DNA from: Candidatus Staskawiczbacteria bacterium RIFOXYB1_FULL_37_44
GTDB lineage: Bacteria > Patescibacteriota > Minisyncoccia > Minisyncoccales > Staskawiczbacteraceae
Assembly: GCA_001822065.1 (NCBI GenBank)
Contig: MHPJ01000001.1
Location: 6,870-70,869 of the forward strand
Reading direction: 5' to 3'
Length of the DNA: 64,000 nt
Numbering within the stretch: position 1 is the stretch's first letter; the number at the start of each line of letters is the position of its first letter. Made by a program: the position numbers and the translations under genes. Below the pieces are notes generated by a model, which worked only from the letters and a program-made list of their open reading frames with translations, was not told the DNA's origin and did not search any database. Below, in pieces: positions 24,433 to 64,000 of the stretch.

Positions 24433-25149
24433 ATGAGAAAAGTGGAAAAAAAACTTAATAGTTTTAAGGCAGTAATTTTGGCTGGCGGGCAGGGGACTCG
24501 TTTGTATCCGATAACAAGAGAAATACCAAAGCCGCTACTTCCGGTAAATAAAAAGCCGATTATTAATTATTTGGTTGATTTATTTCATTCTTACGGAGTA
24601 AAAGACATTGCCATTTTGATCAGTGAAGATCAGTTTGAGGATTTTGTCTGGTGGAAAAAACGTTATTATCCTAAAAATAATATTTTGCTGAAAAAAGAAA
24701 AGGAGCCGTTAGGAACTTTTGGCGGACTTTTTTTTCTAAAGAATTGGGTCGGGAAAAATTTGTTCTTTTTTACTAATGGAGATGAATTGAAAGAAATTAA
24801 TTTATTTAAAATGGCTGAATTCCATAAAAAAATAAATCCTATAGCTACCGTAGCATTGGTTGAAACATCAAATCCTTGCGAATACGGAGTAGCGGTTTGT
24901 GATTCGAATTTTGTAAAAGAATTTATAGAAAAACCCAAAAATCCGTTATCAAACTATGTGAATTCCGGTATTTCCTTATTTTCACCGAAAGTCTTTGATT
25001 ATCATCCTGGACCCAAATTTTTAATGTACGAAAAAGATTTATTTCCAATTTTATCGAAGGAAAAAAAATTGGCTGGTTTTAAATTCAAGGGTAAATGGAT
25101 AGACACTGGCACATGGGAGAGATACAGTAAAGCTTTAGATATGTGGTAA
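24433..25149 (+). CDS. Sugar-1-phosphate nucleotidyltransferase (mannose-1-P guanylyltransferase-like)
   Basis: 'AVILAGGQGTRLYPITREIPKPLLPV'. First gene of a block that contains gmd and fcl. Confidence 0.7.
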   Translation: MRKVEKKLNSFKAVILAGGQGTRLYPITREIPKPLLPVNKKPIINYLVDLFHSYGVKDIAILISEDQFEDFVWWKKRYYPKNNILLKKEKEPLGTFGGLFFLKNWVGKNLFFFTNGDELKEINLFKMAEFHKKINPIATVALVETSNPCEYGVAVCDSNFVKEFIEKPKNPLSNYVNSGISLFSPKVFDYHPGPKFLMYEKDLFPILSKEKKLAGFKFKGKWIDTGTWERYSKALDMW

Positions 25150-25163
25150 AATTATTTCGAAGG

Positions 25164-25221
25164 TGCTATAATTTGACACTTTTTGACCTCTATTGACACC
25201 AATTCAATAAGGGATTATTAT
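25164..25221 (+). promoter_or_regulatory. Promoter/operator region: extended -10, three TTGAC repeats phased at 10 bp, second -10
   Basis: TGcTATAAT (25164-25172). TTGAC at 25173, 25183 and 25193. TTGACA(25193)-17 nt-TATTAT(25216-25221), 10 nt before the ATG at 25231. Confidence 0.45.
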
Positions 25222-25230
25222 TAAATAGTT

Positions 25231-25485
25231 ATGAATATTCCAGCTGAAATTCAACCTAAAAAAATATATACCCCCAAAGAAGCTAGGGATTTTTTAAAAG
25301 TTTCGGAAAGCACGATGAAAAGAATGCTAAAAAGAGGCATCATTAAAGCATATAAGGTTTCAGGCCAATATAGAATTTGGGGAAGCGAAATATTGGTTCT
25401 TGTATCTCCAAAACTGGAATCTGGAGTATATAAAGTTTACAAAAAAATAAGAGAAAATACGCATAAGGCTATTGAAAAATGGTAA
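25231..25485 (+). CDS. Small HTH DNA-binding protein (excisionase/MerR-like HTH_17)
   Basis: 'YTPKEARDFLKVSESTMKRMLKRGIIKAYKVSGQYRI'. Confidence 0.6.
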   Translation: MNIPAEIQPKKIYTPKEARDFLKVSESTMKRMLKRGIIKAYKVSGQYRIWGSEILVLVSPKLESGVYKVYKKIRENTHKAIEKW

Positions 25486-25510
25486 TTTTAGCATTATTAA
25501 ATTAAGGAAA

Positions 25511-26323
25511 ATGATTGGAAAACAAAAAATAGGCATATTGGGGGTTGGCATGGTAGGGGGCTCTCTTAAAAGATATTTTGAAAAACAGGAAAATGTGGAG
25601 CTTTTTTTGTATGATAAAAAAGGATTGGGTTCTTTGGGGGATTTGAATAAGGCCGATTTTGTTTATGTGTGTCTCCCAACTCCTTATGTTTCTGAAAAAG
25701 GATGCGATACTTCTATTATAGAAGAAGGAGTAAAAAATATTTCAGGAAACAAAATTATTATAATTAAATCAACTGTTATTCCGGGCACAACAGATAAAAT
25801 GCAGGAAAAATTTCCTCAACACAAATTTTTATTTAACCCTGAATTTTTAACCGAAGCCACTGCCGACCAAGATATGTTTTTACCCGATAGGCAAATAATG
25901 GGTTACACAAAAGAAAGTTATAGTATTTCTAAAAATGTTTTACAGCAGCTTCCTTTAGCTCCGTACGAGGATATAGTGCCGGCTATAGTGGCTGAATTTA
26001 TAAAGTATGCCAATAATACATGGTTTGCCGTAAAAGTTGCAATGAACAATGAGCTGTATGACCTGGCAAAAAAAACGGGCATTTCTGAAGAAGAATGGGA
26101 AAAACTGGTATCTGGGATAGCATCTGACAAGAGAGTGGGGAGGACTCATTTAACGATAGTACATAAGGAAAAAAGAGGATATTGGGGCAAATGCTTGCCA
26201 AAAGATATAAAAGCTTTGCTGAAATTTGCTGAAGATTCCGGCGTTGAGATGCCTGTTCGTGAGGCTGCAAATAAATATAACGACAAATTATTAAACTCGC
26301 AGGGAGTTAAGGAATTTATATAA
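25511..26323 (+). CDS. Short UDP-glucose/GDP-mannose dehydrogenase-family protein lacking the C-terminal nucleotide-sugar-binding domain
   Basis: '[12 protein letters not shown]', '[13 protein letters not shown]', catalytic-Cys context '[10 protein letters not shown]'. About 270 aa. ATG at 25511 preferred over the TTG at 25472. Confidence 0.6.
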
Positions 26324-26327
26324 ACAT

Positions 26328-27395
26328 ATGGTTGAAGAGCAAGAAAATAGGAAAAAAGCGCTTATAACTGGGATCACTGGACAAGACGGCTCATATTTAG
26401 CTGAGTTTTTGATTTATAAGGGGTATGAGGTTCATGGGATAATAAGAAGGGCGAGCACATTTAATACTCAGCGCATAGATCATATTTATCAAGATCCTCA
26501 TGCTAATAATGTCAGATTGTTTAATCATTACGGTGACTTAACGGATGCTGGAAATTTAGAAAAAATTATAAACCAAGTAAAGCCAGATGAAATATATCAT
26601 TTGGGAGCGCAATCGCATGTAAGGGTTAGTTTTGATATGCCAGAATTTACCTCAAATACTGTGGCGCTTGGAACTTTGAGGATTTTGGAGGCTATAAAGA
26701 ATTCCAGCAGGCCAATTAAATTTTATAACGCTGCTTCTTCCGAAATGTTTGGATCTTCTAATCCTCCGCAAAATGAAGAAACTATTTTTCATCCTAGGTC
26801 GCCGTATGCAGCAGCAAAAGTTTTTTCTTATGAAATAACGCGGGTTTACAGGGAATCGTATGGTATTTTTGCGTGCAACGGTATTTTGTTTAACCATGAA
26901 TCTCCGCGAAGAGGAGAAACATTTGTTACCAGAAAAATAACAAGAGCGATAGCTATAATAAAGGCCGGGTTAGATAAAAAGATATACCTGGGTAATTTAG
27001 ATGCTAAAAGGGACTGGGGATATTCTCCAGAGTATATTGAGGCAATGCACCTAATGCTTCAGCAAGACAAGCCCGCAGATTATGTAATAGGGACTGGCGA
27101 AACCCATACCGTAAAAGAATTTTTAGAGAAGGCTTTTGAATATTCAGGCTTGGGCGATTGGCAAAATTATGTTGAAATTGATCCTGCATATTTTAGACCC
27201 GCTGAAGTAGAAGTTTTGATTGCAGACGCAAAAAAATCAAAAAAAGAGCTGAGCTGGACGCCAAAGATAAAATTTGATGATTTAGTAAAAATAATGGTTG
27301 ATTCTGACATGAGGGCATTAAAATTAACTCCACCCGGAGAAGGAGACAAAATATTAAAAGAAAAATTCTCCGAAAAATGGTGGAGAGTTGATTAA
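26328..27395 (+). CDS. gmd: GDP-mannose 4,6-dehydratase
   Basis: '[44 protein letters not shown]', 'SPYAAAK'. Confidence 0.9.
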
Positions 27396-27397
27396 CT

Positions 27398-28345
27398 ATG
27401 ATTGACCTTAAAACAAAAAAAATTTTAATAACCGGAGCCAACGGATTTGTGGGCAAGCATTTGGTCCAAAACTTATTGGAACTGAAAAATGTTTCGCTAA
27501 ATAATTTGTACACGCCGGATTTCAAGGAATTAGATTTAAGAAAATGGGAGGATTGCCAGAAAGCTGTGCAAGGCAAGGATGTTGTTATACATTTGGCCGC
27601 CAAAGTGGGCGGAATAGGTTTAAACAGGGAAATACCGGGAGAAATGTTTTATGACAATATTATAATGGGTACGCAATTAATGGAGGCTGCGCGACAAGCG
27701 AAGGTGGAAAAGTTTGTGGCTTTAGGTACAATATGCGCTTATCCCAAATTTACGCCCCTGCCCTTTAAGGAAGAATATTTGTGGTCAGGGTATCCCGAAG
27801 AAACTAATGCTCCTTATGGGTTGGCTAAAAAAATGTTATTAGTGCAAGCTCAATCCTACAGGCGGCAATACGGATTTAATGCCATTTATTTATTGCCCGT
27901 TAATATGTATGGTCCCGGAGACAATTTTGACCCCAAAAAATCGCATGTCATTGCAGCCCTTATCAAAAAAATCTACGAAGCGAAAAAGGATAATAAAAAA
28001 TATATTGAAGTTTGGGGTTCGGGCTCTGCAACAAGAGAGTTTCTTTATGTCGAAGACGGAGTGGAGGGAATTATTTTGGCTGCTGAAAAATATGACAAGC
28101 CAGATCCGATAAATTTGGGTTCTGGCGCAGATATTTCAATAAACGATTTAGCGGTTTTGATCTGCAAATTGATGGATTTCAAAGGAGAAATTCGTTGGGA
28201 CAAATCAAAACCGGACGGTCAGCCAAAGCGCCTTTTAGAAGTTTCTAAAGCCCAGAAAGAATTCGGCTTTAAATCAAAGACTAACTTAAGAGAAGGATTG
28301 CAGAAAACAGTCAAATTTTATTTGGAAAATGAAAACAAACAATAA
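27398..28345 (+). CDS. fcl: GDP-L-fucose synthase (GDP-4-keto-6-deoxymannose 3,5-epimerase/4-reductase)
   Basis: 'ILITGANGFVGKHL', 'LGTICAYPKFTPLPFKEE', 'NAPYGLAKK'. Directly follows gmd. Confidence 0.8.
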   Translation: MIDLKTKKILITGANGFVGKHLVQNLLELKNVSLNNLYTPDFKELDLRKWEDCQKAVQGKDVVIHLAAKVGGIGLNREIPGEMFYDNIIMGTQLMEAARQAKVEKFVALGTICAYPKFTPLPFKEEYLWSGYPEETNAPYGLAKKMLLVQAQSYRRQYGFNAIYLLPVNMYGPGDNFDPKKSHVIAALIKKIYEAKKDNKKYIEVWGSGSATREFLYVEDGVEGIILAAEKYDKPDPINLGSGADISINDLAVLICKLMDFKGEIRWDKSKPDGQPKRLLEVSKAQKEFGFKSKTNLREGLQKTVKFYLENENKQ

Positions 28346-29810
28346 AATTTTACAATTTAAATCTTTGCTTTGGGGAAACAAAACCGTAAAGCAGACAATA
28401 TTCAAAAATAGTTTTTGGTTGATATTTGCAGAGGGAATTAATAAGGTTGTAAAACTTTTTTTACTTATCTATATTGCTAAAATTTTCGGACCATTGGAAT
28501 ACGGCAAATTCAGTTTTGCCCTTGCCTTTATAGGTCTGTTTGCAATTTTCCCTAATTTTCTTTCTCCGTCAATTATTGTAAGAGAATTTTCTGGCGATAA
28601 GGAAAAAGAGAAAGAGTTTTCTTCTGTTCTAACCTTTAGAATCATCTTTGGCATCCTGGCTTTAATTTCGATAACAATCGGCTCTTTCTTTATCACACAT
28701 GATATTTCGGTCAGGAAGTTAATTTTTATTTTAGCATTCTATATTCAAATCGACAGTCTCTCCGATTTTTTATCTTTATTCTTTCAGGCAAGACAAAGAA
28801 TGGAGTACCAATCTTTTTCTAAAATTACGAAAAGTATTTTACTTGTGGGATTTGCATTCTTTTTAATTTTTATAGATCCTTCAATTCAAAATCTAGGTTA
28901 TGGCTATTTACTTTCCAGTATTTTGGCGATGATTCTTATTTTGTTTTTTTTCCACAAAAAAATTTATCCAATATCTATAAGCTTAAATAAGAAAATATGG
29001 CAGAGATATTTCTCTCTTCTGTGGCCCGTGGCTTTAGCTGGCTTTTTTCTTTCTCTTACTGCGCAAATGGATGCAGTAATCATGGGACGTATGAATATGA
29101 TTTCTCAGATAGGATATTATAGCGCAGCCCTAAAAATATTAGCCGGGGTTTTTATTCCCTTAGCCCTGCTCAACATAGTTTTTTATCCGGCTATAAATAA
29201 GGCATTCATTGAGGGAAAAGAAAAATTTCAAAAAATTTGGGATTTCCAGATAAGCTTAATGGTTTCTTTACTCTTACCATTATTGGTTGGATGTATTGTT
29301 TTGGCGCCAAAAATTATAAATTTTATTTACGGTGGCAGTTATTCGGCATCAATTTTAGTTTTTCAAATTTTACTTTTCTCAGGAATTATTGTTTTTATAA
29401 ACAAACTTTTTAGCCAGGTTTTATATATTTTGAACAGGCAAAATATGTTTTTATGGATAAATTTAGTCGGAGCGGTAGTGAATATTGGTTTGAATCTTTT
29501 TTTAATACCGCGTTTTGGTATATATGGAGCAGCAGTAGTTAACCTGATCACTTTTTCTGTAATTTTTGTCATTACTATTGCGATTTTAAGGAAATTTATC
29601 TCAATTAGTTTTTTCGATTCCAAATTTTTTGTAACCTCGGCTATTTCAGGACTTGCATGCATTGTGATGTATTTTGCTATTTCAGTTCCCAAGGTTTATG
29701 ATTTGCACGTTGTTTTTTCAGTTTTTATAGGGATGGTTATTTATTCAACTATATTTTTTATTTCTAAATTTTTTCTTAAAAATATCGGGTTAGTAAAAGA
29801 AATTTTTTAG
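28329..29810 (+). CDS. wzx: Wzx-type (MOP superfamily) oligosaccharide flippase
   Basis: 493 aa and highly hydrophobic, with about 12-14 TM helices. N-terminal 'KNSFWLIFAEGINKVVKLFLLIYIAKIFG' is typical of polysaccharide-biosynthesis flippases. Confidence 0.7.
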   Translation: MKTNNKILQFKSLLWGNKTVKQTIFKNSFWLIFAEGINKVVKLFLLIYIAKIFGPLEYGKFSFALAFIGLFAIFPNFLSPSIIVREFSGDKEKEKEFSSVLTFRIIFGILALISITIGSFFITHDISVRKLIFILAFYIQIDSLSDFLSLFFQARQRMEYQSFSKITKSILLVGFAFFLIFIDPSIQNLGYGYLLSSILAMILILFFFHKKIYPISISLNKKIWQRYFSLLWPVALAGFFLSLTAQMDAVIMGRMNMISQIGYYSAALKILAGVFIPLALLNIVFYPAINKAFIEGKEKFQKIWDFQISLMVSLLLPLLVGCIVLAPKIINFIYGGSYSASILVFQILLFSGIIVFINKLFSQVLYILNRQNMFLWINLVGAVVNIGLNLFLIPRFGIYGAAVVNLITFSVIFVITIAILRKFISISFFDSKFFVTSAISGLACIVMYFAISVPKVYDLHVVFSVFIGMVIYSTIFFISKFFLKNIGLVKEIF

Positions 29811-29824: not shown

Positions 29825-30631
29825 ATGGCTTTATCAAATAAAACAAAAATTGGAATTGTAGGCATGGGATTTTTAGGGGGGGCGGTTAAATACTGGTTTG
29901 ACAAGCAAGAATTTCCAGCATTTTTTTACGATAAATATAAAGGGGTGGGATCTGTGGAAGAAATCAATAATGCCGAGATAATATTTATTTGCCTGCCCAC
30001 TCCTTTTTTAGAAGAAGAGAACAAAGGGTTTGATGATTCAGCCATATGGGAAACTTTAGATTTGATTGATGGGCAGAAAATTATAGTCATAAGATCTACG
30101 GTTTTGCCCGGCTCAACCGAAAAATACCAGAAAAACTTTCCGCATCATAAGTTTCTAATGAACCCGGAATTTTTAGTTGCAAAAACAGCGATACAAGATT
30201 TTATAAATCCAAACAGGCAGATAATTGGATGTACTGAGGTCAGTAAAGACGTGGCCGAAAATGTACTGAAAATTTTACCAAAAGCGCCGTTTGAAAAAAT
30301 AGTTTCGGCCACAGAAGCTGAAATGATTAAATATTTTGGAAATGTTTTTTTGGCAAACAGGTTAATTTTTGCAAACCAAATGTACGATATTTGCCAAAAA
30401 ATTGGAGCAGACTACGAAACCGTTAAGGAGTGCGCCGGATCCGACTCAAGGATAGGGCTAAGCCACTTTGATGTTCTTTGCGATGGTTATAGGGGTTATT
30501 CAGGAGCTTGCTTGCCAAAGGATACAAAGGCATTAATTCAGTTTGCCCAAAAAGTAGGAGTTGATGCAAAACTGCTAAAAACTATCGACGAGATAAATAA
30601 TAAGTTGATCGACGGAAATAATCATGATTAA
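29825..30631 (+). CDS. Short UDP-glucose/GDP-mannose dehydrogenase-family protein, paralogue of 25511-26323
   Basis: 'KIGIVGMGFLGGAV', 'NPEFLVAKTAIQD', 'GYSGACLPKD'. 268 aa. Confidence 0.6.
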   Translation: MALSNKTKIGIVGMGFLGGAVKYWFDKQEFPAFFYDKYKGVGSVEEINNAEIIFICLPTPFLEEENKGFDDSAIWETLDLIDGQKIIVIRSTVLPGSTEKYQKNFPHHKFLMNPEFLVAKTAIQDFINPNRQIIGCTEVSKDVAENVLKILPKAPFEKIVSATEAEMIKYFGNVFLANRLIFANQMYDICQKIGADYETVKECAGSDSRIGLSHFDVLCDGYRGYSGACLPKDTKALIQFAQKVGVDAKLLKTIDEINNKLIDGNNHD

Positions 30632-31589
30632 ATCTAAAGAAAAAATTCTGGTTACGGGAGGCGCTGGTTTCATAGGGTCTCATTTATGCGAAAGGCTGTT
30701 GAGGGAAGGTTTTTCTGTTATTTGTCTTGATAATTTTAGTGATTTTTATGACCCTAAATTAAAGGAAGACAATGTAAAAGAAATGATTGGCAATAAAAAA
30801 CTCTCATTAGTGAGGGGAGACATTCTAGATAAAAATTTATTAAAAAAAATATTTTCTGCAAACAAAATTTTTAAAATTGTTCATTTGGCCGCCATACCCG
30901 GTGTGCGCCAATCCATAAAAACCCCTTTTGATTATATAGATGTCGATATTAAGGGCACAGTCAATCTTCTTGAAATGGCAAAAGAGTATAAAGTTTTTCA
31001 ATTTATATTTGGATCTTCTTCGACTGTTTACGGACAAGACTCTAAGTCGCCGTTTTCCGAAGACGAAACAAATCTCATTCCGGTTTCGCCATACGGAGTT
31101 AGTAAATTATCAGCAGAAATATTCTGCCGCACCTATAGCAAACTTTATAAAATTCCCACTACTATTCTTAGATTTTTTTGTGTTTTTGGACCAAGGGAAA
31201 GGCCCGAGCTGGTTTTACCAAAATTTGTGGCGCTGGCTGAAGCCGGAAAGGCGATTTCCCAGTATGGATCAGGAGAATCTGCCAGAGATTATACCTACAT
31301 TGACGATATTGTAGAAGGTATAATGAAAGCCGTTAAGAAAGAATTTAGTTTTGAAATATTCAATTTAGGCAATTCAAGTCCTGTAAAGTTAAAAGACTTG
31401 ATAAAAACTATTGGTGAAAAATTAAAAGTTGAATTAAAAATAGAAAATATGCCAGACCAACTTGGAGATGTGCCAATTACTTATGCAAATATTTCAAAAA
31501 GCAAAAAAATACTTGGGTGGCATCCAAAAGTTTCTTTGGGAGCTGGTGTGGATAAATTTTTAATTTGGCATAAAAATAAAAATCGTTAA
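30624..31589 (+). CDS. NAD-dependent nucleotide-sugar epimerase (UDP-glucuronate 4-epimerase-like extended SDR)
   Basis: 'ILVTGGAGFIGSHLCERLL', 'SPYGVSKLSAE'. Confidence 0.7.
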   Translation: MIKSKEKILVTGGAGFIGSHLCERLLREGFSVICLDNFSDFYDPKLKEDNVKEMIGNKKLSLVRGDILDKNLLKKIFSANKIFKIVHLAAIPGVRQSIKTPFDYIDVDIKGTVNLLEMAKEYKVFQFIFGSSSTVYGQDSKSPFSEDETNLIPVSPYGVSKLSAEIFCRTYSKLYKIPTTILRFFCVFGPRERPELVLPKFVALAEAGKAISQYGSGESARDYTYIDDIVEGIMKAVKKEFSFEIFNLGNSSPVKLKDLIKTIGEKLKVELKIENMPDQLGDVPITYANISKSKKILGWHPKVSLGAGVDKFLIWHKNKNR

Positions 31590-31598
31590 AAATAAATT

Positions 31599-32492: not shown

Positions 32493-32502
32493 ACTAACAA
32501 GC

Positions 32503-51721: not shown

Positions 51722-51749
51722 GTGATTAAAAATTGATAAAACTGGAATT

Positions 51750-54965: not shown

Positions 54966-54975
54966 GAGATTATTT

Positions 54976-55668: not shown

Positions 55669-55670
55669 AC

Positions 55671-56225: not shown

Positions 56226-57319
56226 CCATTTTTAAAAAATATCTTTTACTTACTTTTTTTGTAGCATTTTTGAATTTACTGATTATCTTATTTTTTTTCG
56301 TTCCCAGGCTAAATGCTACTGACAGCGCACAGTATATCTCAACGATTCTGCATCTTTCGGGCGACCATTCAGAAACTCTGTATCCCTTTAGAGTTATAAA
56401 CCCTTTACCCGTTTTAATAGGAGCAATCCTTTCGCCGTTTATGTCGGCTTCTGCAACTCTTATATTGCAAAATATATTTTTTTATTTTGGCTCGGTTTTA
56501 GTTATTTTTTTATTGATAAATTCAGTTTATAAAAACGAGAAACAGGCTTTTTATGGGGCAATTCTATTTTCAACAGCCTATCCCGTAATGGCTTATGGCT
56601 TGTCTCCACTTACCGATTTTAGCGGGTGGTTTTTCTATATCCTATGTATTTATCTTACAGTAAGATTTTTTAAAAAGCCGATTTTAAGAAAGAGTTTTCT
56701 TATTGGACTTTTGGGCGGAATAGGCATGCTGTTTAAGGAAAATTTAGCCGCCTTGCCGATTTTTTTCTTTGTATTTGTTTTCGTATGCGCAAATTTTTCT
56801 CTTAGGAACAAGGTAAGACATATTTGTGTATTTCTATTGGCATTTTTTTTACCCGTTATTACTAGCGAAGTTATGATCTATCATTTTTTTTCTTACTCAA
56901 TGATACAATGGTATTTAAACGTTTCTTTAACCCACGGCAATTCATTTATTTATGCATATAGTCCGCTTAGAATCGTCATTGAAATTGCCAGAGTGTTTTC
57001 TTTCGGATGGATTTTTTTCCTAGCAGGACTCATTAGGGAAATAAGAACAAAAGATAAAAATCGGACTAAAATTTTAATCTCCTTAATCCTACCTTCCTTA
57101 TCCTTTTTCCTTTGGGCGTTTCCTCATAATAGAATTGCTTTTATTTCGGCCCCTTTAATTATTTTACTGGGAAGCTTCGGATTTATAGAATTATTTAAAA
57201 ATAATAAATATAGCAGATATATAGAAATAACCCTTTTGTTTTTTTACATTTTTATAAATTATTTTTTGGTCGAATTTTTATTAAAATATGGAGACGCATT
57301 AAGAATATATTTTAAATAA
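56222..57319 (+). CDS. GT-C fold membrane glycosyltransferase (ArnT/PMT-like)
   Basis: More than 9 TM helices. The first-loop acidic motif 'ATDSAQYIS' is analogous to the D/E-x-D...Y loop of GT-C enzymes. Confidence 0.55.
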   Translation: MTIFKKYLLLTFFVAFLNLLIILFFFVPRLNATDSAQYISTILHLSGDHSETLYPFRVINPLPVLIGAILSPFMSASATLILQNIFFYFGSVLVIFLLINSVYKNEKQAFYGAILFSTAYPVMAYGLSPLTDFSGWFFYILCIYLTVRFFKKPILRKSFLIGLLGGIGMLFKENLAALPIFFFVFVFVCANFSLRNKVRHICVFLLAFFLPVITSEVMIYHFFSYSMIQWYLNVSLTHGNSFIYAYSPLRIVIEIARVFSFGWIFFLAGLIREIRTKDKNRTKILISLILPSLSFFLWAFPHNRIAFISAPLIILLGSFGFIELFKNNKYSRYIEITLLFFYIFINYFLVEFLLKYGDALRIYFK

Positions 57320-57328
57320 TCAGAAAAT

Positions 57329-57700
57329 ATGAGCCCGTTTATCTTTTTAGCAATATCTATAATATCTACAGTAACCGGCCAACTTTTATTAAAAAAGGGG
57401 GTTTTACTAGTGGGAAAAATAGAATTTTCCCTTAACGGCATTTTTAATTTAGCCTTGCAGTTCTTTAAAAATGCATACCTGTTTTTCGGTCTTTGCCTTT
57501 TCGTGTTCGCCTTTATTTTTTGGGTTTTTGCCCTGTCGAAAAAAGATCTCGGCATTATTTATCCTATTTCAAGCAGTTTGGTGCTTTCTTTAATAGTTTT
57601 TGGGTCATTTTTGTTTTTTAAGGAAAGTATTTCTTTATGGCAGATTTCTGGAATTGTTTTTATAATTTTTGGCATTTTTTTATTATTGTTTAAGGGTTGA
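57329..57700 (+). CDS. Small 4-TM EamA/SMR-like transporter (ArnE/ArnF-like lipid-linked sugar flippase candidate)
   Basis: 123 aa with 4 hydrophobic helices. Located between the GT-C and GT2 genes. Confidence 0.5.
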   Translation: MSPFIFLAISIISTVTGQLLLKKGVLLVGKIEFSLNGIFNLALQFFKNAYLFFGLCLFVFAFIFWVFALSKKDLGIIYPISSSLVLSLIVFGSFLFFKESISLWQISGIVFIIFGIFLLLFKG

Positions 57701-57705
57701 CTAAA

Positions 57706-58692
57706 ATGGAAAAATTAGTTTCAATAATAATCCCTTGCAGGAACGAAGAAGAATTTATTTCAAGATGCCTATATTCTGTTTTAAATAACGATTATCCAAA
57801 AGATAAATTGGAAATTTTTGTTGCAGACGGAGAAAGCCAAGATAAAACCCGTGAAATTGTCAGCAGATACATAATCAAGTATCCTTTTATAAAGTTATTG
57901 AATAATCCAAGACATATTGCTGCTTCTGCGCTTAATTTGGGGATTAAAGAGTCAATGGGAAGTATTATTATAAGAATGGACGCGCATGCAATTTACGATA
58001 AAAATTATATATCTAAGTGCGTTTGTTATTTGCAAAACTACGACGCTGATAATGTGGGGGGAGTAATATATATAATCCCAAGGGAAAACACGCCTGTCGG
58101 CAGGGGGATTGCAAAAGCAATGTCATCTTTTTTGGGAACCGGGGGCGCGCATTATAAGCTTGGAGCTAAAAGCTTCAAAGAAGTTGATACGGTTCCATTT
58201 GGATGTTTTAAAAGGAGTATATTTGATAAAGTTGGTTTTTTCAATGAGAATCTCAAAAGAAGCCAGGATCTGGAATTTAATTTGCGTATTAAAAGAGCCG
58301 GCGGTAAGATTTATTTGTTTCCGGACATTGTAAGCGATTATTACTCGCGCTCCGGGCTAAAAGATTTTTTCATTTACAATTTTAAAAACGGCATTTGGGC
58401 TATTTATCCTTTTAAATTTGTTAAAACGTTATTTAAGCCAAGGCACTACGCGCCGTTAGTATTTGTTTTGGGGCTAACTTTTCTGTTTATGGCTGGCCTT
58501 TTTGTGAGACCATTTTTGTATATGTTTTGGACTGTAATTATTTTATATTTAGCGATTATATTATATGCAGCTGCTAAAGTTTCGTTAAAAGAAAAAGATG
58601 CAACATATCTATTCTCTTTGCCGGTTGCTTTGGCCGTCAGACACTTTTCTTATGGGTTGGGGTCTATTTTTGGTATAATAAAATTATTATAA
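57706..58692 (+). CDS. GT2 glycosyltransferase with C-terminal TM helices
   Basis: 'VSIIIPCRNEEEFI', 'FVADGESQDKT', 'RMDAHA'. Hydrophobic C-terminal 90 aa. Confidence 0.75.
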   Translation: MEKLVSIIIPCRNEEEFISRCLYSVLNNDYPKDKLEIFVADGESQDKTREIVSRYIIKYPFIKLLNNPRHIAASALNLGIKESMGSIIIRMDAHAIYDKNYISKCVCYLQNYDADNVGGVIYIIPRENTPVGRGIAKAMSSFLGTGGAHYKLGAKSFKEVDTVPFGCFKRSIFDKVGFFNENLKRSQDLEFNLRIKRAGGKIYLFPDIVSDYYSRSGLKDFFIYNFKNGIWAIYPFKFVKTLFKPRHYAPLVFVLGLTFLFMAGLFVRPFLYMFWTVIILYLAIILYAAAKVSLKEKDATYLFSLPVALAVRHFSYGLGSIFGIIKLL

Positions 58693-58693: not shown

Positions 58694-59287
58694 ATGATAA
58701 AAAGATTATTTGATATAATTTCATCTGTAATTGGTTTGTCAATTGTTTCGCCGATTTTTTTATTCGTGGTTTTTTTGATAAAAAAAGAATCTCCTGGGCC
58801 GATTTTTTATAAAGCCCAAAGAATCGGTAAGAAGGGAAAGCCTTTTAGTATGTATAAATTTAGAACAATGGTTGAAAATGCCGATAAAATTGGCGGATCC
58901 TCCACGCCCAACGATGATCCCAGGCTTACTAAAATCGGTTTATTTTTAAAAAAATACCAGTTAGATGAGTTGCCGCAGTTGTTCAATGTGCTAAAAGGTG
59001 ATATGAGTATAGTAGGACCCAGGCCGCAGGTTTCTTGGGCAGTTCAGCTTTACACGCCAGAAGAAAAGCAGGTTTTGAGTATGCTTCCCGGTTTGACCGA
59101 TTGGGCTTCTTTATGGAATTTTCATGAAGGAGAAATTTTAGAAGGCAGCAATAACCCCGACAAAGATTATATGGAAAAAATACATCCTGAAAAGATGCGT
59201 CTGCAGTTAAAATATGTAAAAAATCATTCTTTTTGGGTTGACCTTAAAATAATATTTAAAACTTTGCTAAAAGTAATTAAGGGATGA
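58694..59287 (+). CDS. Polyprenyl-phosphate sugar-phosphate transferase (small monotopic PGT, PglC/WbaP C-domain type)
   Basis: 'RLFDIISSVIGL', 'PGPIFYKAQRIGKKGKPFSMYKFRTM', 'DELPQLFNVLKGDMSIVGPRP'. Confidence 0.9.
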   Translation: MIKRLFDIISSVIGLSIVSPIFLFVVFLIKKESPGPIFYKAQRIGKKGKPFSMYKFRTMVENADKIGGSSTPNDDPRLTKIGLFLKKYQLDELPQLFNVLKGDMSIVGPRPQVSWAVQLYTPEEKQVLSMLPGLTDWASLWNFHEGEILEGSNNPDKDYMEKIHPEKMRLQLKYVKNHSFWVDLKIIFKTLLKVIKG

Positions 59288-59296: not shown

Positions 59297-60064
59297 ATGA
59301 AAAAAAATAATTCAAAGAAAAGCGCTAAGGCAGAAGGAGGTCTTAGAACGTCCCAGGAGAAAGAGGTCGGCACGGAGCTTGCCAAAATTTTTACTGAATC
59401 CGCGGACCCTTTGCAAACACGGCTTGATAATTTTCCCAAATATATAAGGCGCCAAAAACTGACAAGATTGCTTTCACTATATGAAATATTTAAAAAAGTC
59501 GTGAATATAAAAGGTTCAATTGTAGATTGCGGAGTTTACCGGGGATTTAGCTTAATGTCTTGGGCGCAAATGAGTGCGGTTTTGGAGCCGAATAATTTTA
59601 CTAGGAGGATTTATGGATTTGATACTTTTGAGGGATTTCCCGGATTGTCGGAAAAAGACGAAAGCAAGATTGGTGCTATATCAAAGGGCGCATTAAGTGC
59701 TGATTCTTTTGAGGAGCTGAGAAAACTTTCAAAAGCATATGACAACAATAGATTTTTGGGGCACATTAATAAGATTGAGCTTATTAAAGGGGATTCTTCA
59801 AAAACAATTCCATATTTTATCAAAAAAAATCCGCAGCTCGTTGTAAGTTTATTATTTTTGGATTTTGACTTGTTTGAGCCCACAAAAGTTGCTCTTGAAA
59901 ATTTTTATCCAAGAATGCCCAAGGGTTCAATTCTTGCTTTTGACGAATTAGATAATCCATTATGGCCGGGTGAAACATTAGCATTGCTGGAAACAATTGG
60001 AATTAGAGAATTGAAAATAGAAAGAGTGGATTTCGATCCTTACATAGGTTACGTTATTTTGTAA
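59297..60064 (+). CDS. TylF/MycF-family (macrocin-type) sugar O-methyltransferase
   Basis: 'DCGVYRGFS', 'GFDTFEGFP', 'FLDFDLFEPT'. Confidence 0.7.
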   Translation: MKKNNSKKSAKAEGGLRTSQEKEVGTELAKIFTESADPLQTRLDNFPKYIRRQKLTRLLSLYEIFKKVVNIKGSIVDCGVYRGFSLMSWAQMSAVLEPNNFTRRIYGFDTFEGFPGLSEKDESKIGAISKGALSADSFEELRKLSKAYDNNRFLGHINKIELIKGDSSKTIPYFIKKNPQLVVSLLFLDFDLFEPTKVALENFYPRMPKGSILAFDELDNPLWPGETLALLETIGIRELKIERVDFDPYIGYVIL

Positions 60065-60065
60065 A

Positions 60066-60857
60066 ATGGACTATAATAGCATTTCAAAAAATATAAGAAA
60101 AAAGATTCTGAAAATGAAATATGAATCCCAAGAGGGGCACATTGGGTCTGCTTTGTCTTGTGTTGATATTTTAAACGTGCTTTATTTTAAAATACTTAAA
60201 ATTGATCCAAAAGATCCTTTGAATGAAGATAGGGATAGACTTGTTTTCAGCAAAGGCCACGCTGCCGCTGCGTTATATGCAGTTTTATCTGAAAAAGAAT
60301 TTTTTGAAGAAAAAATTCTTGATGCATATTGCAAAGATGGTAGCAAATTAGCAGGTCATTCTACGAGAGGATCTGTGCCTGGAATAGAAATTTCTGCTGG
60401 CTCTTTGGGTCACGGCTTGCCTATGGCTTCGGGTATGGCTTTAGCTGGCAAAAAGGATAATAAAAATTATAGAGTTTTTGTTTTAATGTCTGACGGAGAA
60501 ATGGATGAGGGAACAACATGGGAATCGGCTTTGTTTTCAGCTCACCATAAATTAGATAATTTAACCGTGATTGTTGATTATAATAAATGGCAGGCATTTG
60601 GTCGGACTAACGAAGTTTTAAATTTAGAGCCATTAGCAAAAAAATGGGAGAGTTTTGGCTGGAGCGTTAAGGAGATAAATGGTCATAATTTTTTAGAAAT
60701 TGAAAATGTGTTATCTATAGTTCCGTTTGAAAAAGTAAAACCTAATGTTGTTATCGCAAATACGATTAAGGGAAAGGGAGTAGAATTTCTAGAAGATAAA
60801 TTAGAATCACATTACACGCATATTACAAAAGAAGATTATGAGAAAAGCATTCGTTAA
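60066..60857 (+). CDS. Transketolase, N-terminal (TPP-binding) subunit
   Basis: 'GHIGSALSCVDILNVLY', 'SKGHAAAALYAVL', 'GSLGHGLP', 'SDGEMDEGTTWE'. Confidence 0.85.
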   Translation: MDYNSISKNIRKKILKMKYESQEGHIGSALSCVDILNVLYFKILKIDPKDPLNEDRDRLVFSKGHAAAALYAVLSEKEFFEEKILDAYCKDGSKLAGHSTRGSVPGIEISAGSLGHGLPMASGMALAGKKDNKNYRVFVLMSDGEMDEGTTWESALFSAHHKLDNLTVIVDYNKWQAFGRTNEVLNLEPLAKKWESFGWSVKEINGHNFLEIENVLSIVPFEKVKPNVVIANTIKGKGVEFLEDKLESHYTHITKEDYEKSIR

Positions 60858-61758
60858 AACTTTAATTGAGTTGGCAGAAAAAGATGACAGAGTTTATCTT
60901 CTGACAGGTGATCTGGGCTTTCACGCCTTGGAAGGTTTTGCTGAAAAATTTCCAGAAAGGTTTTTAAATTGCGGGGTGGCTGAACAAAATATGATGGGTG
61001 TGGCTGCTGGACTTGCTTTGTCCGGGAAAAAACCTTATGTTTATTCAATAGTGCCTTTTGTTACTTTAAGATGTTTAGAGCAAATAAGAATCGACGTGTG
61101 TTATCATAATTTAGATGTTAAAATAATAGGAATCGGCGGAGGATTTTCTTATGGAACTTTAGGATCAACTCATTCTGTTATGGAAGAGATGGCTATTTTA
61201 AGAACTATTCCAAATATGTCGGTTTTTTCTCCTGCTGACCTTTTAGAAACAGAAGAGTTATTTTTAAAAACTTATGAAAATAAAAATCCGGCATATTTTA
61301 GATTATCAAATATTGGGCAGTATGAAGTTTACGATAAAAATCCTAATCTTGAAATTGGCAAGCCAAATGTGGTTAAAGATGGAGCAGATGGAGTTATTGT
61401 CGCTACGGGTTTGATGGTTTCTATATGTTTGGATATTATAAAAAAGATAAAAAATGAAAATAATATAAACCTGAAATTATTAAGTGTTCACACCGTAAAG
61501 CCGTTAGATGAAAAATTATTAATGGAACAGATAAGTGACTTTAAAAAAATTTTTGTTATTGAGGAGCACAGCGTTATTGGCGGATTGGGATCTATTGTCG
61601 CTGAAGTATTAGCAGATTCGGGATATGGAGGAATTTTAAAAAGGGTTGGTATGGATGACGAATTTTTAAAGGAGATTGGGACGGCCGATTATTTACGCGC
61701 AAAGCATATAGTTAAGAAAAATGGCGCGATAGAAGATATTTTAAATTATTTTAAATAA
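60838..61758 (+). CDS. Transketolase, C-terminal (pyrimidine-binding) subunit
   Basis: 'FLNCGVAEQNMMGVAAGLALSGKKPYV'. Overlaps the N-subunit gene by 20 nt. Confidence 0.85.
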   Translation: MRKAFVKTLIELAEKDDRVYLLTGDLGFHALEGFAEKFPERFLNCGVAEQNMMGVAAGLALSGKKPYVYSIVPFVTLRCLEQIRIDVCYHNLDVKIIGIGGGFSYGTLGSTHSVMEEMAILRTIPNMSVFSPADLLETEELFLKTYENKNPAYFRLSNIGQYEVYDKNPNLEIGKPNVVKDGADGVIVATGLMVSICLDIIKKIKNENNINLKLLSVHTVKPLDEKLLMEQISDFKKIFVIEEHSVIGGLGSIVAEVLADSGYGGILKRVGMDDEFLKEIGTADYLRAKHIVKKNGAIEDILNYFK

Positions 61759-61768
61759 AAAAGATAAT

Positions 61769-62866
61769 ATGAAAGTTCCGTTTGTAAATTATCCGTTGCA
61801 GTATAAAAATATAGAAACAGAAATTGATTCCGCAATAAAAAAGATTTTGAATAATGGGGATTTGATATTGCGCCAAGATGTGGATGATTTTGAAAAAAAT
61901 ATGGCTGATTTTTTGGGCGTCAAATATGCGGTTGGAGTAAACTCCTGTACTGATGCTTTAATATTTTCTTTGAAATCAGCAGGCATAAAAGAAGGAGACG
62001 AGGTTATTACTGTTTCTCATACCTTTTTTGCCACTATTGAGGCGATTATTCATTGCAGAGCAAAACCTGTTTTAGTAGATGTTGGGGAAGACTTTGTAAT
62101 GGATGTTTCTAAGGTTGAAAGCAATATAACAGATAAAACTAAAGCTATAATTCCGGTCCATTTTAATGGACATATGGTTGATATGGACAAGCTTAATGAG
62201 ATAGCAAAAAGGCATAATTTAATTATTATTGAAGATGCAGCTCAAGCCCTTGGCGCCGCATTTAACAATAAAAAAGCTGGCTCCCTGGGTTTAGCTGGGT
62301 GTTTCAGTTTTTATCCTGCAAAATTATTGGGTGCTTTCGGTGATGCCGGAATTGTTGCAACCAACGACCAAGTTCTAGCCAAAAACATACGTTTGCTAAG
62401 GAATCACGGTTTACGCACAAAAACAGAAATATTGTTGTTTGGATTTACAAGCAGATTAGATAATTTACAGGCAGCTGTTTTAAATGTAAAATTTAAATAT
62501 TTGGACCAGTGGATACAACGAAGAAGAAAAATAGCTGAAATTTATAAAGACAAGTTGTTTGATGTTAAAAATATAAAACTACCTTTTAACTCTGGCGGAA
62601 GATTTTTTGATGTTTTTCAAAACTTTGTCATACGCGCTGAAAAAAGAGACGAATTATTTATTTTTTTAAAAGAAAAAGAAATTGAAACTTTGGTAAAAGA
62701 TCCTGTGCCAAACCATTTGCACTTAGGTTTGAGACTTGATCATTTTAATCTTCCATTGACCGAACGCCTAGCCAAAGAGGTTATTTCTCTGCCGATGTAC
62801 CCAGAACTCACAGACGAGCAGGTAAACTACGTAATAAGTTGTGTTAAAGAATTTTATAAGTTATAA
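61769..62866 (+). CDS. DegT/DnrJ/EryC1/StrS-family PLP-dependent sugar aminotransferase
   Basis: 'AVGVNSCTDAL', 'IIEDAAQALGA', 'SFYPAKLLGAFGDAG' (PLP Lys). Confidence 0.85.
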   Translation: MKVPFVNYPLQYKNIETEIDSAIKKILNNGDLILRQDVDDFEKNMADFLGVKYAVGVNSCTDALIFSLKSAGIKEGDEVITVSHTFFATIEAIIHCRAKPVLVDVGEDFVMDVSKVESNITDKTKAIIPVHFNGHMVDMDKLNEIAKRHNLIIIEDAAQALGAAFNNKKAGSLGLAGCFSFYPAKLLGAFGDAGIVATNDQVLAKNIRLLRNHGLRTKTEILLFGFTSRLDNLQAAVLNVKFKYLDQWIQRRRKIAEIYKDKLFDVKNIKLPFNSGGRFFDVFQNFVIRAEKRDELFIFLKEKEIETLVKDPVPNHLHLGLRLDHFNLPLTERLAKEVISLPMYPELTDEQVNYVISCVKEFYKL

Positions 62867-62869
62867 ATT

Positions 62870-64000
62870 ATGGATTTGCCAATTTATTTGAGAAAAAGTA
62901 TAAATCGTTTTCCTTGGTCAAGGATGGCAATTTTATTCTTGGCGGATATTGTTTTAATCATTTTTTCTCTATGGATTTCTTTTTCCCTTAGATTCGACGG
63001 GAATATTCCCGTTCAATATTTTTCAATGATAAAAAACGTCTCGATTTTGGCGGCATTTTTTTGCATTCCTATATTTTATTCTGTTGGATTATATTCTTTT
63101 TCCTGGTCATATGTGGGAATAACTGAATTACTCTCTCTATTAAAGGCTTCGTTTATTGCATTCTTATTTTTAACAACAACTATTTATCTTTCTAAGGAAT
63201 TTCCTGTTTTTAAAGGTTATCCACGCTCGACTCTGATTACCGGGCTTTGCCTGGTAATTATTTTTTGCGGTTCTGTCCGGCTGTCTAAAAGAATATATTT
63301 GGCATTATATAAAAAAGACATCGGGAAAAAAAGAACTTTGATTGTTGGGGCAGGAGACGCCGGCGAGCAGATTTTAAGAAGCGTGATAAGCTCTCCCTTT
63401 ACCGATTATTTTCCTATTGGATTTGTTGACGATAGCGATACAAAGAAGGGCGTTATTATTCATGGGTTGAAAGTTTTGGGAAAAATATCAGATATCCCTG
63501 AAATTGCAGAAAAAAACAGCATAAGCCAACTAATTATTGCATTGCCTTCGGCTGGAAATGCAATAATTAGAAAGGCAATTGAGATAGCGAGGATTGCAGG
63601 AATAAAAAAAATTAAAATTGCTCCAGCGTTAAACGAAATTATCAGCGGAGAGATTTCTTTTAAGAATCTCAAGGATGTGGACGTTGGAGATATTTTAAGC
63701 CGGGAGCAGATTTTTTTGGACACAAAACAAATAGAGGCTTTTATAAAAAATAAAACAGTTTTAATTACCGGGGCGGCAGGCTCAATAGGATCTGAATTAT
63801 CTCGCCAAACTGCCAAATTTAATCCGTCATTAATTTTATTATTGGACCAGGACGAAACGGGAATTTTTAATATTTCTAATGAGCTGGAAAATAGTTTTCC
63901 TAATTTAAAAATTAAATCCATAATTGCAGATATTGGAGACAAAGGTAGAATTAGCGAAATTTTGGGCGCTTTCCATCCAAAAATTGTTTTTCACGCGGCA
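62870..64000 (+). CDS. Membrane-bound CapD/PglF/WbpM-type nucleotide-sugar 4,6-dehydratase; 3' end outside the window
   Basis: Not in the ORF track because there is no stop before the window end. My translation from the ATG at 62870 gives 4 TM helices, 'RTLIVGAGDAGEQILRSV', 'VLITGAAGSIGSEL' and '...KIVFHAA'. Confidence 0.85.
   Translation, partial: MDLPIYLRKSINRFPWSRMAILFLADIVLIIFSLWISFSLRFDGNIPVQYFSMIKNVSILAAFFCIPIFYSVGLYSFSWSYVGITELLSLLKASFIAFLFLTTTIYLSKEFPVFKGYPRSTLITGLCLVIIFCGSVRLSKRIYLALYKKDIGKKRTLIVGAGDAGEQILRSVISSPFTDYFPIGFVDDSDTKKGVIIHGLKVLGKISDIPEIAEKNSISQLIIALPSAGNAIIRKAIEIARIAGIKKIKIAPALNEIISGEISFKNLKDVDVGDILSREQIFLDTKQIEAFIKNKTVLITGAAGSIGSELSRQTAKFNPSLILLLDQDETGIFNISNELENSFPNLKIKSIIADIGDKGRISEILGAFHPKIVFHAA

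Follow-up and report, generated by a model that had tools for sequence, protein, structure and literature searches.

Wzx/Wzy-dependent surface glycans are encoded by gene clusters such as rfb of E. coli (galF-gnd), cps of S. pneumoniae (dexB-aliA) and the capsule loci of Bacteroides, which combine a phosphoglycosyl transferase (PGT), Wzx, Wzy and Wzz with nucleotide-sugar and glycosyltransferase genes in one compact co-oriented block, and in which conserved flanks and a conserved regulatory head accompany an interior that is swapped between relatives. Here, we analyzed a window of 64,000 nucleotides (nt), that is, the whole stretch at positions 6,870 to 70,869 of the forward strand of contig MHPJ01000001.1 (GCA_001822065.1) from Candidatus Staskawiczbacteria bacterium RIFOXYB1_FULL_37_44, in which a closely packed block of glycan genes extends from 24433 past the end. 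In kind, this block is a Wzx/Wzy-dependent glycan gene cluster, a type already known, and with a probability of roughly 0.8 it represents one variable surface-glycan island of a Candidate Phyla Radiation (CPR)/Parcubacteria genome. The island shares with the known clusters the PGT, Wzx, a Wzy-like protein and Wzz, the compact co-oriented arrangement of nucleotide-sugar and glycosyltransferase genes, the conserved flanks around an exchangeable interior and the conserved regulatory head. It differs in its host, a CPR bacterium of ~0.73 Mb; the window holds no evidence of lipopolysaccharide or an outer membrane, and no LCP-family ligase was found in the window or its flanks. Its head gene encodes an HTH_17 protein in place of JUMPstart/RfaH or UpxY, and its ~43 genes amount to about twice the typical size and to ~5.6% of a genome whose length is taken from sibling bins.

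The mechanical list of open reading frames (ORFs) contained 41 complete plus-strand ORFs from 24433 to 62866 and a 42nd that opens at 62870 and leaves the window (ORF1 to ORF42; coordinates are those of the window). This bears out an initial annotation made from the letters alone, which had described 42 consecutive same-strand ORFs with mostly overlapping or short junctions and a sole sizeable gap at 25150-25230: 13 of the 41 junctions overlap, 27 measure 0-37 nt, and the remaining one has 81 nt. The median spacing is 4 nt inside the block versus ~88 nt for the 22 upstream junctions of the same window. The same annotation had regarded the strand run as the mark of one glycan superlocus, and this argument fell away. 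The plus strand carries 19 of 22 genes upstream of the block in the window, at least 11 housekeeping genes beyond the locus and ~72 of 75 genes (~96%) contig-wide; because co-orientation is contig-wide, 42 genes in a row on one strand are not an improbable outcome and cannot be used to set the limits of the locus. The block is set apart by its tight spacing and gene content, not by strand. Extension of the sequence, which had been proposed as a check, showed that the block continues for 1.4 kb beyond the window and closes with CapD and Wzz. Specifically, the CapD gene (ORF42) ends at ~64.7 kb and is directly followed, 0.7 kb past the window, by a gene for a 228-aa Wzz protein (~64742-65428; Wzz 35.1 bits, gathering score 25.5), then by a gene for a 570-aa PG_binding_1 protein and by housekeeping genes for SpoU, thioredoxin, Rrf2, cysteine desulfurase, NifU and MnmA. 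The whole island thus comprises ~41 kb and 43 genes.

PGT, Wzx, a candidate Wzy and Wzz are each present in the island as a single copy, and it is because there is just one set of assembly genes that we favor a single glycan. ORF37 (58694..59287, plus strand, as are all numbered ORFs) is a small monotopic PglC-type PGT, matched over its full length by Bac_transf (209.7 bits, gathering score 27) and bearing one N-terminal hydrophobic segment; it is predicted to initiate the chain. ORF6 (28329..29810) is the Wzx flippase (Polysacc_synt 94.2 bits, gathering score 28.2, ~13 transmembrane (TM) segments), and ORF30 (52595..53878), with ~9 TM segments and a Wzy_C match of 29.0 bits, is the candidate Wzy polymerase. 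ORF41 and ORF42 (61769..64000) encode a DegT/PseC-type aminotransferase (DegT 359 bits) and a CapD/PglF-type 4,6-dehydratase. The latter is cut by the window; the full protein of 618 aa gives 382 bits with Polysacc_synt_2 and has an N-terminal TM/CoA_binding_3 region besides. Together with ORF37, these two genes at the 3' end of the island resemble the initiation module of pgl-type loci. Like the pgl loci of Campylobacter and Neisseria, the island holds the PglF-type dehydratase, the PglE-type aminotransferase and the PglC-type PGT close together, and a Wzy_C-family protein adjoins it beside a Ser/Thr-rich surface protein. Unlike them, it lacks a PglD-type acetyltransferase, its module is interrupted by a split transketolase and a TylF methyltransferase, the flanking Wzy_C protein bears a TPR tail, and the Wzy-like protein and Wzz imply polymerization, which pgl lacks.

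In addition to chain assembly, three adjacent genes at 56222..58692 would serve decoration. ORF34 qualifies as a GT-C enzyme (PMT_2 33.9 bits, gathering score 26.1, ~9 TM segments), ORF35 is an ArnF/SMR-like protein of 123 aa with 4-5 TM segments (EamA 25 bits, gathering score 28.2), and ORF36 is a GT2 enzyme (103.8 bits) with two C-terminal TM segments at ~252 and ~273. The same set of a GT-C enzyme of 9 TM segments, an SMR-like protein of 4-5 TM segments and a GT2 with two C-terminal TM segments is found in ArnC/ArnEF/ArnT, GtrB/GtrA/Gtr* and CsbB/GtcA/YfhO; the difference is that ORF35 matches ArnF weakly and ORF36 reaches no ArnC/GtrB equivalog. ORF34-36 appear to form an extracytoplasmic decoration module of ArnT/ArnEF/ArnC-like (Gtr-like) architecture. 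Three-component GT-C modules (Gtr, Arn, CsbB/GtcA/YfhO) normally decorate an existing polymer and do not act alone.

The regulatory head of the island lies at ORF2 (25231) and not at ORF1, where the block had originally been taken to start. The only sizeable gap contains a promoter region (25164..25221, plus strand) with the motif TGCTATAAT and tandem TGAC repeats, after which comes TTGACA-17 nt-TATTAT. The latter, with 11 of 12 positions agreeing, is a better sigma-70-like site than any other in the 40 kb and ends 9 nt before the ATG of ORF2. ORF2 (25231..25485) encodes an 84-aa HTH_17 DNA-binding protein (40.5 bits), which is presumed to regulate the locus. Related loci were compared over 10-kb flanks, and the -35 element, the spacing, the -10 element and the ~9-nt distance to the ATG are all kept upstream of the HTH_17 gene in two close relatives (L063 and L064) and in a more distant Parcubacterium (L058). 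Since the promoter before HTH_17 is conserved in these relatives, ORF2 should be regarded as the operon head, and since it ends ~9 nt before the ATG, a leaderless or near-leaderless ORF2 transcript is suggested. The HTH_17 protein is 92% identical in L063, 84% in L064, 65% in L058 and 51% in a further CPR locus (L015); the genes neighboring it in L063 and L064 are just 39-74% identical and the sugar genes there are unrelated. ORF1 (24433..25149), a sugar-1-phosphate nucleotidyltransferase (NTP_transferase 140 bits, no NCBIfam equivalog reached), has no counterpart at the equivalent position in relatives and lies upstream of this head. Terminators and promoters predicted within the block were no more numerous than in shuffled sequence, and no intergenic gap contained a terminator-like site. 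Transcription probably proceeds mainly from the one conserved promoter before ORF2. No Rfam or tRNA match was obtained within the window, and a search for invertible-promoter or phase-variation repeats at 24100-25600 returned just short AT-rich matches such as chance would produce.

Upstream of the head stand two further conserved genes, a large surface protein gene at 18194 and an O-antigen-ligase::TPR gene at 21054, whose vicinity had been pointed out from the outset; both kinds of gene proved to be linked to such loci in three related genomes. The first (18194..20200, plus strand) encodes a secreted Ser/Thr/Ala-rich protein of 668 aa with a signal-peptide-like N-terminus, a long S/T/A/G-rich body and a PG_binding_1 domain (33.2 bits), possibly a wall-anchored surface protein that accepts the glycan. 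Its orthologs adjoin the Wzy_C::TPR gene in L063 (60% identity) and L064 (48%), and in L058 a PG_binding_1 protein without detected sequence homology to it lies beside that gene. The second gene (21054..23366, minus strand, divergent from the island) encodes a 770-aa protein with Wzy_C (72.9 bits) and C-terminal TPR, a candidate WaaL/PglL-type ligase. Its family (~750 aa) has named members from Patescibacteria only, and its synteny with the island head extends to L058, L063 and L064. Between these two genes, at 20325-21026, there is a weak IS200-like Y1 transposase match (24.5 bits); the slot, on the edge of the island, appears to be insertion-prone, because L063 has a PDDEXK_3 gene there and L064 nothing. 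PG_binding_1 proteins thus occur on both sides of the island, at 18194-20200 and at ~65413-67125 (L002 13645-15357); the two have the domain alone in common (38% identity over 93 residues), with no full-length paralogy.

Comparison with relatives, which had been suggested as the way to separate a conserved core from variable cassettes, gave a clear division. In L063 and L064 the order radical SAM, DeoR, sigma-70, an unknown protein (u231), PG_binding_1, Wzy_C::TPR and HTH_17 is kept, with identities of 74%/66% for radical SAM, 73%/72% for sigma-70 and 65%/56% for Wzy_C::TPR; ClpB is 90% identical in L063 (the L064 stretch does not include it). Behind HTH_17, the sugar genes are non-homologous to those of the present island: L063 carries DegT, CTP_transf_3, a B12-radical SAM::Fe-ADH fusion, NeuB, NeuC and Wzx, and L064 a short gene resembling UDP-glucose dehydrogenase (UGDH), a GT2::NeuB fusion, CTP_transf_3, a short-chain dehydrogenase/reductase (SDR) and Wzx. 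In L058, Wzy_C::TPR and PG_binding_1 directly precede the island, and the first 12 genes of that island keep the order of ORF2-14. The locus is a variable glycan island with fixed flanks and a replaceable interior, as in O-antigen and capsule loci, and the replacement pattern is the same as in the O-antigens and capsules of well-studied bacteria. Because the sugar genes are swapped wholesale while the regulator, the promoter, the ligase-like gene and the wall-bound protein stay fixed, the pattern suggests diversifying selection on the identity of the surface sugar, for example through host recognition, phage or predation. Three features deserve attention: how much the island costs a 0.73-Mb genome, a frame specific to Patescibacteria (PG-binding protein, Wzy_C::TPR, HTH_17 and promoter), and a cassette embedded in the interior. 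The HTH_17 gene and its promoter, in particular, offer a handle for locating such islands across Patescibacteria.

The same comparison bears on whether the run consists of two or more separate glycan systems that share just strand and neighborhood, for example a Wzx/Wzy polymer, a protein O-glycosylation or wall decoration, and a stand-alone acid-sugar pathway. Such an arrangement would account for modules of differing phylogenetic affinity, since ORF2-14 are colinear solely with other CPR loci and ORF15, 21, 24 and 25 match Elusimicrobia and bacterium STB_115 at 51-71% identity; ORF34-36 form a self-contained three-component module, two Wzy_C-family proteins are present (ORF30 and the upstream Wzy_C::TPR), and contig-wide co-orientation creates no bond between genes. 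Nevertheless, we consider it unlikely. PGT, Wzx and Wzz occur once each, the median spacing of 4 nt is without intergenic terminator-like sites, relatives exchange the entire interior as a unit between the same flanks, and modules of the ORF34-36 kind normally act on a polymer that already exists. The view of the initial annotation that this is one superlocus accordingly keeps its footing in the single PGT/Wzx/candidate Wzy/Wzz set, the operon-like packing and the conserved promoter, and loses the strand run as evidence of a single unit.

The embedded cassette is best set against the known pathways to CMP-activated ulosonic acids. In the KdsA/KdsB and NeuB/NeuA-PseF-LegF systems, an aldolase dependent on phosphoenolpyruvate (PEP) lies beside a CTP_transf_3 protein and a transferase in glycan loci; ORF11-13 have the same composition, and sister genomes carry NeuB-type cassettes at the same position. 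The island differs in that its aldolase is neither KdsA nor NeuB and instead an offshoot of 3-deoxy-7-phosphoheptulonate (DAHP) synthase Ibeta without the phosphate-binding Arg, in that its transferase is a GT2 fused to an inactivated copy of the cytidylyltransferase, and in its accessory enzymes, which are AroE-like and GFO here and AP_endonuc_2 and KduI/IolB in other phyla. ORF11 (33520..34443), the aldolase, was placed by profile scores, motifs and alignment in a distinct subfamily. Its TIM barrel aligns over ~250 residues with type Ibeta DAHP synthases (P. furiosus 1ZCO, Thermotoga maritima 1RZM), its PDB matches include the DAHP synthases 4GRS (best, 202 bits) and 1ZCO (195 bits), and alignment with these two shows that the metal ligands Cys, His, Glu and Asp (GPC, DPSH, EVHP, xxD) and the PEP-binding residues are unchanged. 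ORF11 very probably works as a PEP aldolase like DAHP synthase, KdsA and NeuB, and is presumed to be an ulosonic-acid synthase. However, it lies below both DAHP synthase cut-offs (TIGR01361 242.7 vs. 267.75; NF006421 274.4 vs. 335) and both KdsA cut-offs (TIGR01362 93.7 vs. 314; NF003543 96.9 vs. 242), and with the NeuB Pfam family it gives 29.9 bits with no stretch passing alone and has no SAF domain. It shows one of four features of membership in the DAHP synthases and lacks three, and the KdsA and NeuB tests are likewise negative, so that it should not be filed under any of these names. All 14 subfamily members aligned share with ORF11 the motif KPLT, where all 10 canonical sequences have KPR(T/S), and in every subfamily member aligned an insertion of ~26 residues follows. 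Structural work has established the Arg of KPR(T/S) as the binding residue for the phosphate of erythrose-4-phosphate; its loss suggests a different aldose as the acceptor, possibly an unphosphorylated one.

ORF13 (PseF/KdsB-like) and ORF14 (HIT-family, 22.9 bits, kept in L058) lie at 35847..37002; the former is a cytidylyltransferase (CTP_transf_3 95.5 bits vs. a gathering score of 22.6) whose N-terminal nucleotide loop, IPARGGSKGVPGKN, is intact. ORF12 (34460..35824) is a GT2 (Glycos_transf_2 92 bits) fused to a degenerate CTP_transf_3 domain (38 bits). This C-terminal half is a paralog of ORF13 (32% identity, E = 3e-28) that has lost eight residues of the GSKGVPGKN nucleotide loop seen in ORF13; probably, this domain binds a CMP-sugar and has no catalytic function, and ORF12 is presumed to be the transferase for a CMP-sugar. 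Preceding ORF11, at 29825..33501, are a short UGDH-like protein (ORF7), an SDR epimerase/dehydratase (ORF8), an AroE-family protein (ORF9) and a GFO/IDH/MocA oxidoreductase (ORF10), presumed to make the precursor of the acid sugar or to tailor it; these four are colinear at 54-63% identity in three CPR loci of GTDB (L015, L016 and L018). The CPR block running from HTH through Wzx, short UGDH, SDR, AroE, GFO and ORF11-12-13 to HIT is colinear at 48-76% identity. ORF15 (37012..37947) is a NanM-type sugar O-methyltransferase (TIGR04371 98 bits vs. a cut-off of 44); in Elusimicrobia and Omnitrophota, homologs of it (46-52%) adjoin the cassette. The codon for Glu145 of ORF15 is a stop in the ENA assembly ERZ4902888, owing to a G-to-T change at window position 37444; this is either a variant of the population in which one methylation is switched off, or an error in a region of ~4x coverage.

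The ORF11 subfamily was found at 64-78% identity in 22 GTDB species-representative loci from about ten lineages, all of them metagenome-assembled genomes (MAGs): Dehalococcoidia, Elusimicrobia, Desulfobacterota, Omnitrophota, Saccharibacteria, Parcubacteria, Sulfurovum, Myxococcia (Myxococcota), Victivallales and Planctomycetales (Planctomycetota). The next matches, at 43% or less, are canonical enzymes. The cassette is also present in Margulisiibacteriota (L007, GCA_003242895.1). Of 25 subfamily loci, 22 have an ORF13-like gene no more than 10 kb away and 19 an ORF12-like GT2::CTP_transf_3 fusion, as against 0 of 26 canonical DAHP synthase/KDO8P synthase control loci for either, and the contexts are polysaccharide or flagellin-glycosylation loci. 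The accessory pair is AroE-like and GFO in CPR, Desulfobacterota and others, and AP_endonuc_2 and KduI/IolB in Elusimicrobia and Margulisiibacteriota. In L007, two Maf/MptE-like flagellin glycosyltransferase genes enclose the cassette, which also adjoins a NeuB/CMP-synthetase pair; given this context, the acid sugar may also serve flagellin glycosylation. On plasmids and phages no subfamily member was found, just canonical aroF-type genes at 41% identity or less. No curated family or database name was found for the cassette, and a literature search, with subscription papers outside it, gave nothing relevant on a DAHP-synthase-type aldolase with a cytidylyltransferase in glycans or on CPR glycan loci.

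Could ORF9 and ORF11 simply be ordinary shikimate genes (aroE and aroF/G) inside the island, with no new acid-sugar pathway? ORF9 lies above the aroE equivalog cut-off (TIGR00507 214.9 bits vs. 200.2) and, compared with 1NVT, retains SxS, the catalytic K, NxxxN..NTD and QGA, that is, all catalytic and substrate residues; the closest solved structures to ORF11 are DAHP synthases whose metal ligands it keeps intact, and its homologs are named 3-deoxy-7-phosphoheptulonate synthase in databases. Nevertheless, we regard this as very improbable. ORF11 falls under both DAHP synthase cut-offs, the Leu in place of the Arg and the insertion recur throughout the subfamily, and identity drops from at least 64% within it to at most 43% for canonical enzymes. 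Its context is glycan and not aromatic amino-acid synthesis, with CTP_transf_3 neighbors that the canonical loci lack; none of aroB, aroD, aroK, aroA and aroC was found in the window, and a NeuB-type nonulosonic-acid cassette takes the same position in sister genomes. Because sister Staskawiczbacteria carry NeuB-type cassettes there, the simplest reading is an analogous CMP-activated keto-deoxy acid sugar made through a different aldolase. We therefore put forward, tentatively and at somewhat less than even odds, that ORF11-13, with ORF7-10 and ORF15 for tailoring, constitute a third, hitherto unrecognized way of making a CMP-activated 3-deoxy-2-ulosonic acid, one that depends on neither KdsA nor NeuB and has spread horizontally as a cassette through about ten mostly uncultured lineages. 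If so, an undescribed acidic sugar would be widespread on environmental cell surfaces, and the DAHP-synthase-derived cassette is a testable lead to it in many uncultured lineages.

Taking the block as one Wzx/Wzy-dependent island, a pathway can be proposed for which we infer every substrate, the single polymer, the transcription unit and the acceptor. First, ORF42 and ORF41 would generate a UDP-sugar of the 4-amino-4,6-dideoxy-HexNAc type, which ORF37 would place on polyprenyl phosphate. Second, GT4 and GT2 enzymes would extend the unit with sugars made by the island: a GDP-6-deoxyhexose such as fucose from ORF4 and ORF5 (26328..28345), the products of three SDRs, the product of the split transketolase, and the acid sugar. 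For the latter, ORF11 would act on an acceptor other than erythrose-4-phosphate, ORF7-10 would supply the precursor or tailor the product, ORF13 would activate it with CMP and ORF12 would transfer it, the fused inactivated cytidylyltransferase copy probably holding the CMP-sugar. Five methyltransferases and two radical SAM enzymes may modify the sugars. Third, Wzx (ORF6) would flip the unit and ORF30 polymerize it under the control of Wzz; ORF36, ORF35 and ORF34, in the roles of ArnC, ArnF and ArnT, could add a side sugar outside the membrane, and Wzy_C::TPR may transfer the product to its acceptor, possibly the adjacent Ser/Thr-rich PG-binding protein.

Several observations weigh against this scheme or against parts of it. 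The Wzy_C score of ORF30 is under the gathering score of 31.7 and no NCBIfam model matches the protein, while the flanking Wzy_C::TPR protein is a candidate for a ligase, an O-oligosaccharyltransferase or a second polymerase alike. A first sugar of the bacillosamine type would call for a PglD-type acetyltransferase, which the island lacks; ORF35 reaches 37.2 bits with ArnF against a cut-off of 99, and ORF13 reaches 134 bits with PseF against an equivalog cut-off of 205.7. The best match of ORF5 is NF047922 (GDPFucSynFcl) at 296 bits, under the curated cut-off of 500, so that it could make another GDP-6-deoxyhexose. ORF9, which keeps every AroE substrate residue, possibly acts on a shikimate- or quinate-type substrate; its family also takes in a keto-sugar reductase (7COK). 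The soluble proteins ORF19, ORF23 and ORF29 gave no Pfam, NCBIfam or PDB similarity except a faint GT9-like match of ORF19. With three SDRs and two or three nucleotidyltransferases, besides the separate GT-C module, the island could make several products, and a polymer together with a separate wall or protein decoration is conceivable. Finally, the genome share of the island depends on the size of sibling bins.

The host is a Parcubacteria/CPR lineage with a reduced genome, as the initial annotation had supposed in calling the locus a very large share of coding capacity. Identical proteins are carried by Candidatus Staskawiczbacteria RIFOXYD2_FULL_37_9 and RIFOXYB1_FULL_37_44, and sibling '_37_' bins of the Rifle aquifer study measure 727,491 bp (832 genes) and 743,406 bp (849 genes), according to PMC5079060. 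Set against these ~0.73-0.74 Mb, the ~41 kb of the island make up the share of ~5.6% given above. CPR bacteria are generally regarded as organisms of minimal gene content that live on the cells of a host, which makes it informative that one of them devotes ~5-6% of ~0.73 Mb to one surface-glycan island.

That the block might be an assembly or binning chimera of unrelated loci had been raised at the outset, with coverage or GC-skew breaks and contig joins as the expected signs. Only one finding points in this direction: a low-coverage ENA assembly breaks within ORF19 (window 41273/41391), and the second of its contigs, NODE_395 (L062), abutting window position 41391, begins with 264 nt (1-264) that have no match to the window and encode thrombospondin-type-3-like Asp-rich repeats. 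Since these nucleotides are foreign, they mark a chimeric contig end inside ORF19 in that assembly only, and the window is unaffected; the two ENA contigs abut in unchanged order. The same genes were found on at least 23 contigs from NCBI (including MHPO01000023.1, GCA_001820435.1), two JGI samples, ENA and Logan. Fragments from five assemblies are colinear with window 20624-64000 at 99.99-100% identity without rearrangement, the NCBI, Logan and second JGI assemblies being concordant, and in a different sample the whole block is covered at 100% identity by one JGI contig (75,963 bp). GC, GC3 and cumulative GC skew show no compositional break within the block that would indicate a join or horizontal transfer. 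As independent assemblies are colinear and near-identical, the block is not chimeric; we rule this explanation out and leave it practically no probability.

As for gene content, the initial annotation was mostly right. Against its at least seven glycosyltransferases, six were identified (three of GT2, two of GT4 and one of GT-C) in addition to the PGT. Confirmed were two radical SAM enzymes (both radical SAM/SPASM), the split transketolase, the aminotransferase (DegT) and the GH-like protein (GH14/GH42-like). A complete Wzx/Wzy/PGT pathway had been claimed, of which Wzx and the PGT are firm and Wzy is the sub-threshold ORF30; of gmd and fcl, the former is firm and the latter is a fcl-like gene. 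About six methyltransferases became five, three sugar-1-phosphate nucleotidyltransferases became two firm ones and a weak third, and of two cytidylyltransferases one is intact and the other is the degenerate copy fused to GT2. The list had omitted what is most unusual in the island: the aroE-like, GFO and DAHP-synthase-like genes that accompany the CMP-transferases, two short UGDH-like genes and the ArnT-like trio.

Among the sugar-precursor genes, ORF4 is a full-length GDP-mannose 4,6-dehydratase (GDP_Man_Dehyd 449 bits), followed by the GDP-fucose-synthase-like reductase/epimerase ORF5; three further SDRs exist beyond this pair. ORF3 (25472..26323) is a short UGDH-like protein of 283 aa with only the UDPG_MGDP_dh N and central domains; it retains the Rossmann and catalytic GKCLPKD motifs and is missing the UDP-binding C-terminal domain. 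ORF3 and ORF7 (29825-30631, 268 aa) are paralogs; both keep the Rossmann motif and the catalytic cysteine of GxCLPKD and both lack the entire UDP-binding C-terminal domain. These are not pseudogenes, because short forms recur in the CPR islands L058 and L064, and their substrate may be something other than a nucleotide sugar. At 37958..42632 follow a weak NTP_transf_3 protein (ORF16), a PRK-type kinase::HAD phosphatase (ORF17), a methyltransferase (ORF18), ORF19 (398 aa) and an SDR (ORF20). The next genes, at 42654..48521, encode a methyltransferase (ORF21), a sugar-1-phosphate nucleotidyltransferase (ORF22), a 454-aa protein with a 37% homolog in L064 (ORF23), a GH14/GH42-like protein of 610 aa (ORF24) and a radical SAM/SPASM enzyme (ORF25). 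ORF21, ORF24 and ORF25 are colinear in L010/L011 at 69-70%, 51-53% and 69-71% identity, adjoining the DAHP-synthase-like cassette, and by this measure are a conserved trio; the hosts of L010/L011 (L057), an Elusimicrobia UBA6262 MAG and bacterium STB_115, are also those in which ORF15 together with the trio accompanies the cassette at 51-71% identity. Family searches assigned ORF26 and ORF27 to GT4 and ORF28 to the SDR dehydratases/epimerases, with ORF29 (282 aa) unassigned (48531..52598), and identified a radical SAM/SPASM enzyme (ORF31), a soluble GT2 (ORF32) and a methyltransferase (ORF33) at 53916..56225. Finally, ORF38 to ORF40 (59297..61758) are a TylF-type methyltransferase (46.7 bits) and the two parts of the split transketolase (Transketolase_N 135.7 bits; Transket_pyr 108.7 and C domain 64.6 bits), which presumably carry out two-carbon branching and methylation of a keto-sugar.

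Some minor features were also observed. On inspection, the 20 nt before most of the 41 starts between 24433 and 62866 appear AT-rich, with no obvious GGAGG-type Shine-Dalgarno sequence. Outside the island, two small proteins with a PaaX central (Cas2-like) domain are encoded at 3036-3563 and 12223-12792 (69 and 78 bits); the window contains no CRISPR array or cas genes. An ORF of 118 aa at 2517-2873, in a region without Rfam match, has a GC content of 48.5% vs. ~36% and no family match, and its product would be a small hydrophobic Trp/His-rich membrane protein.

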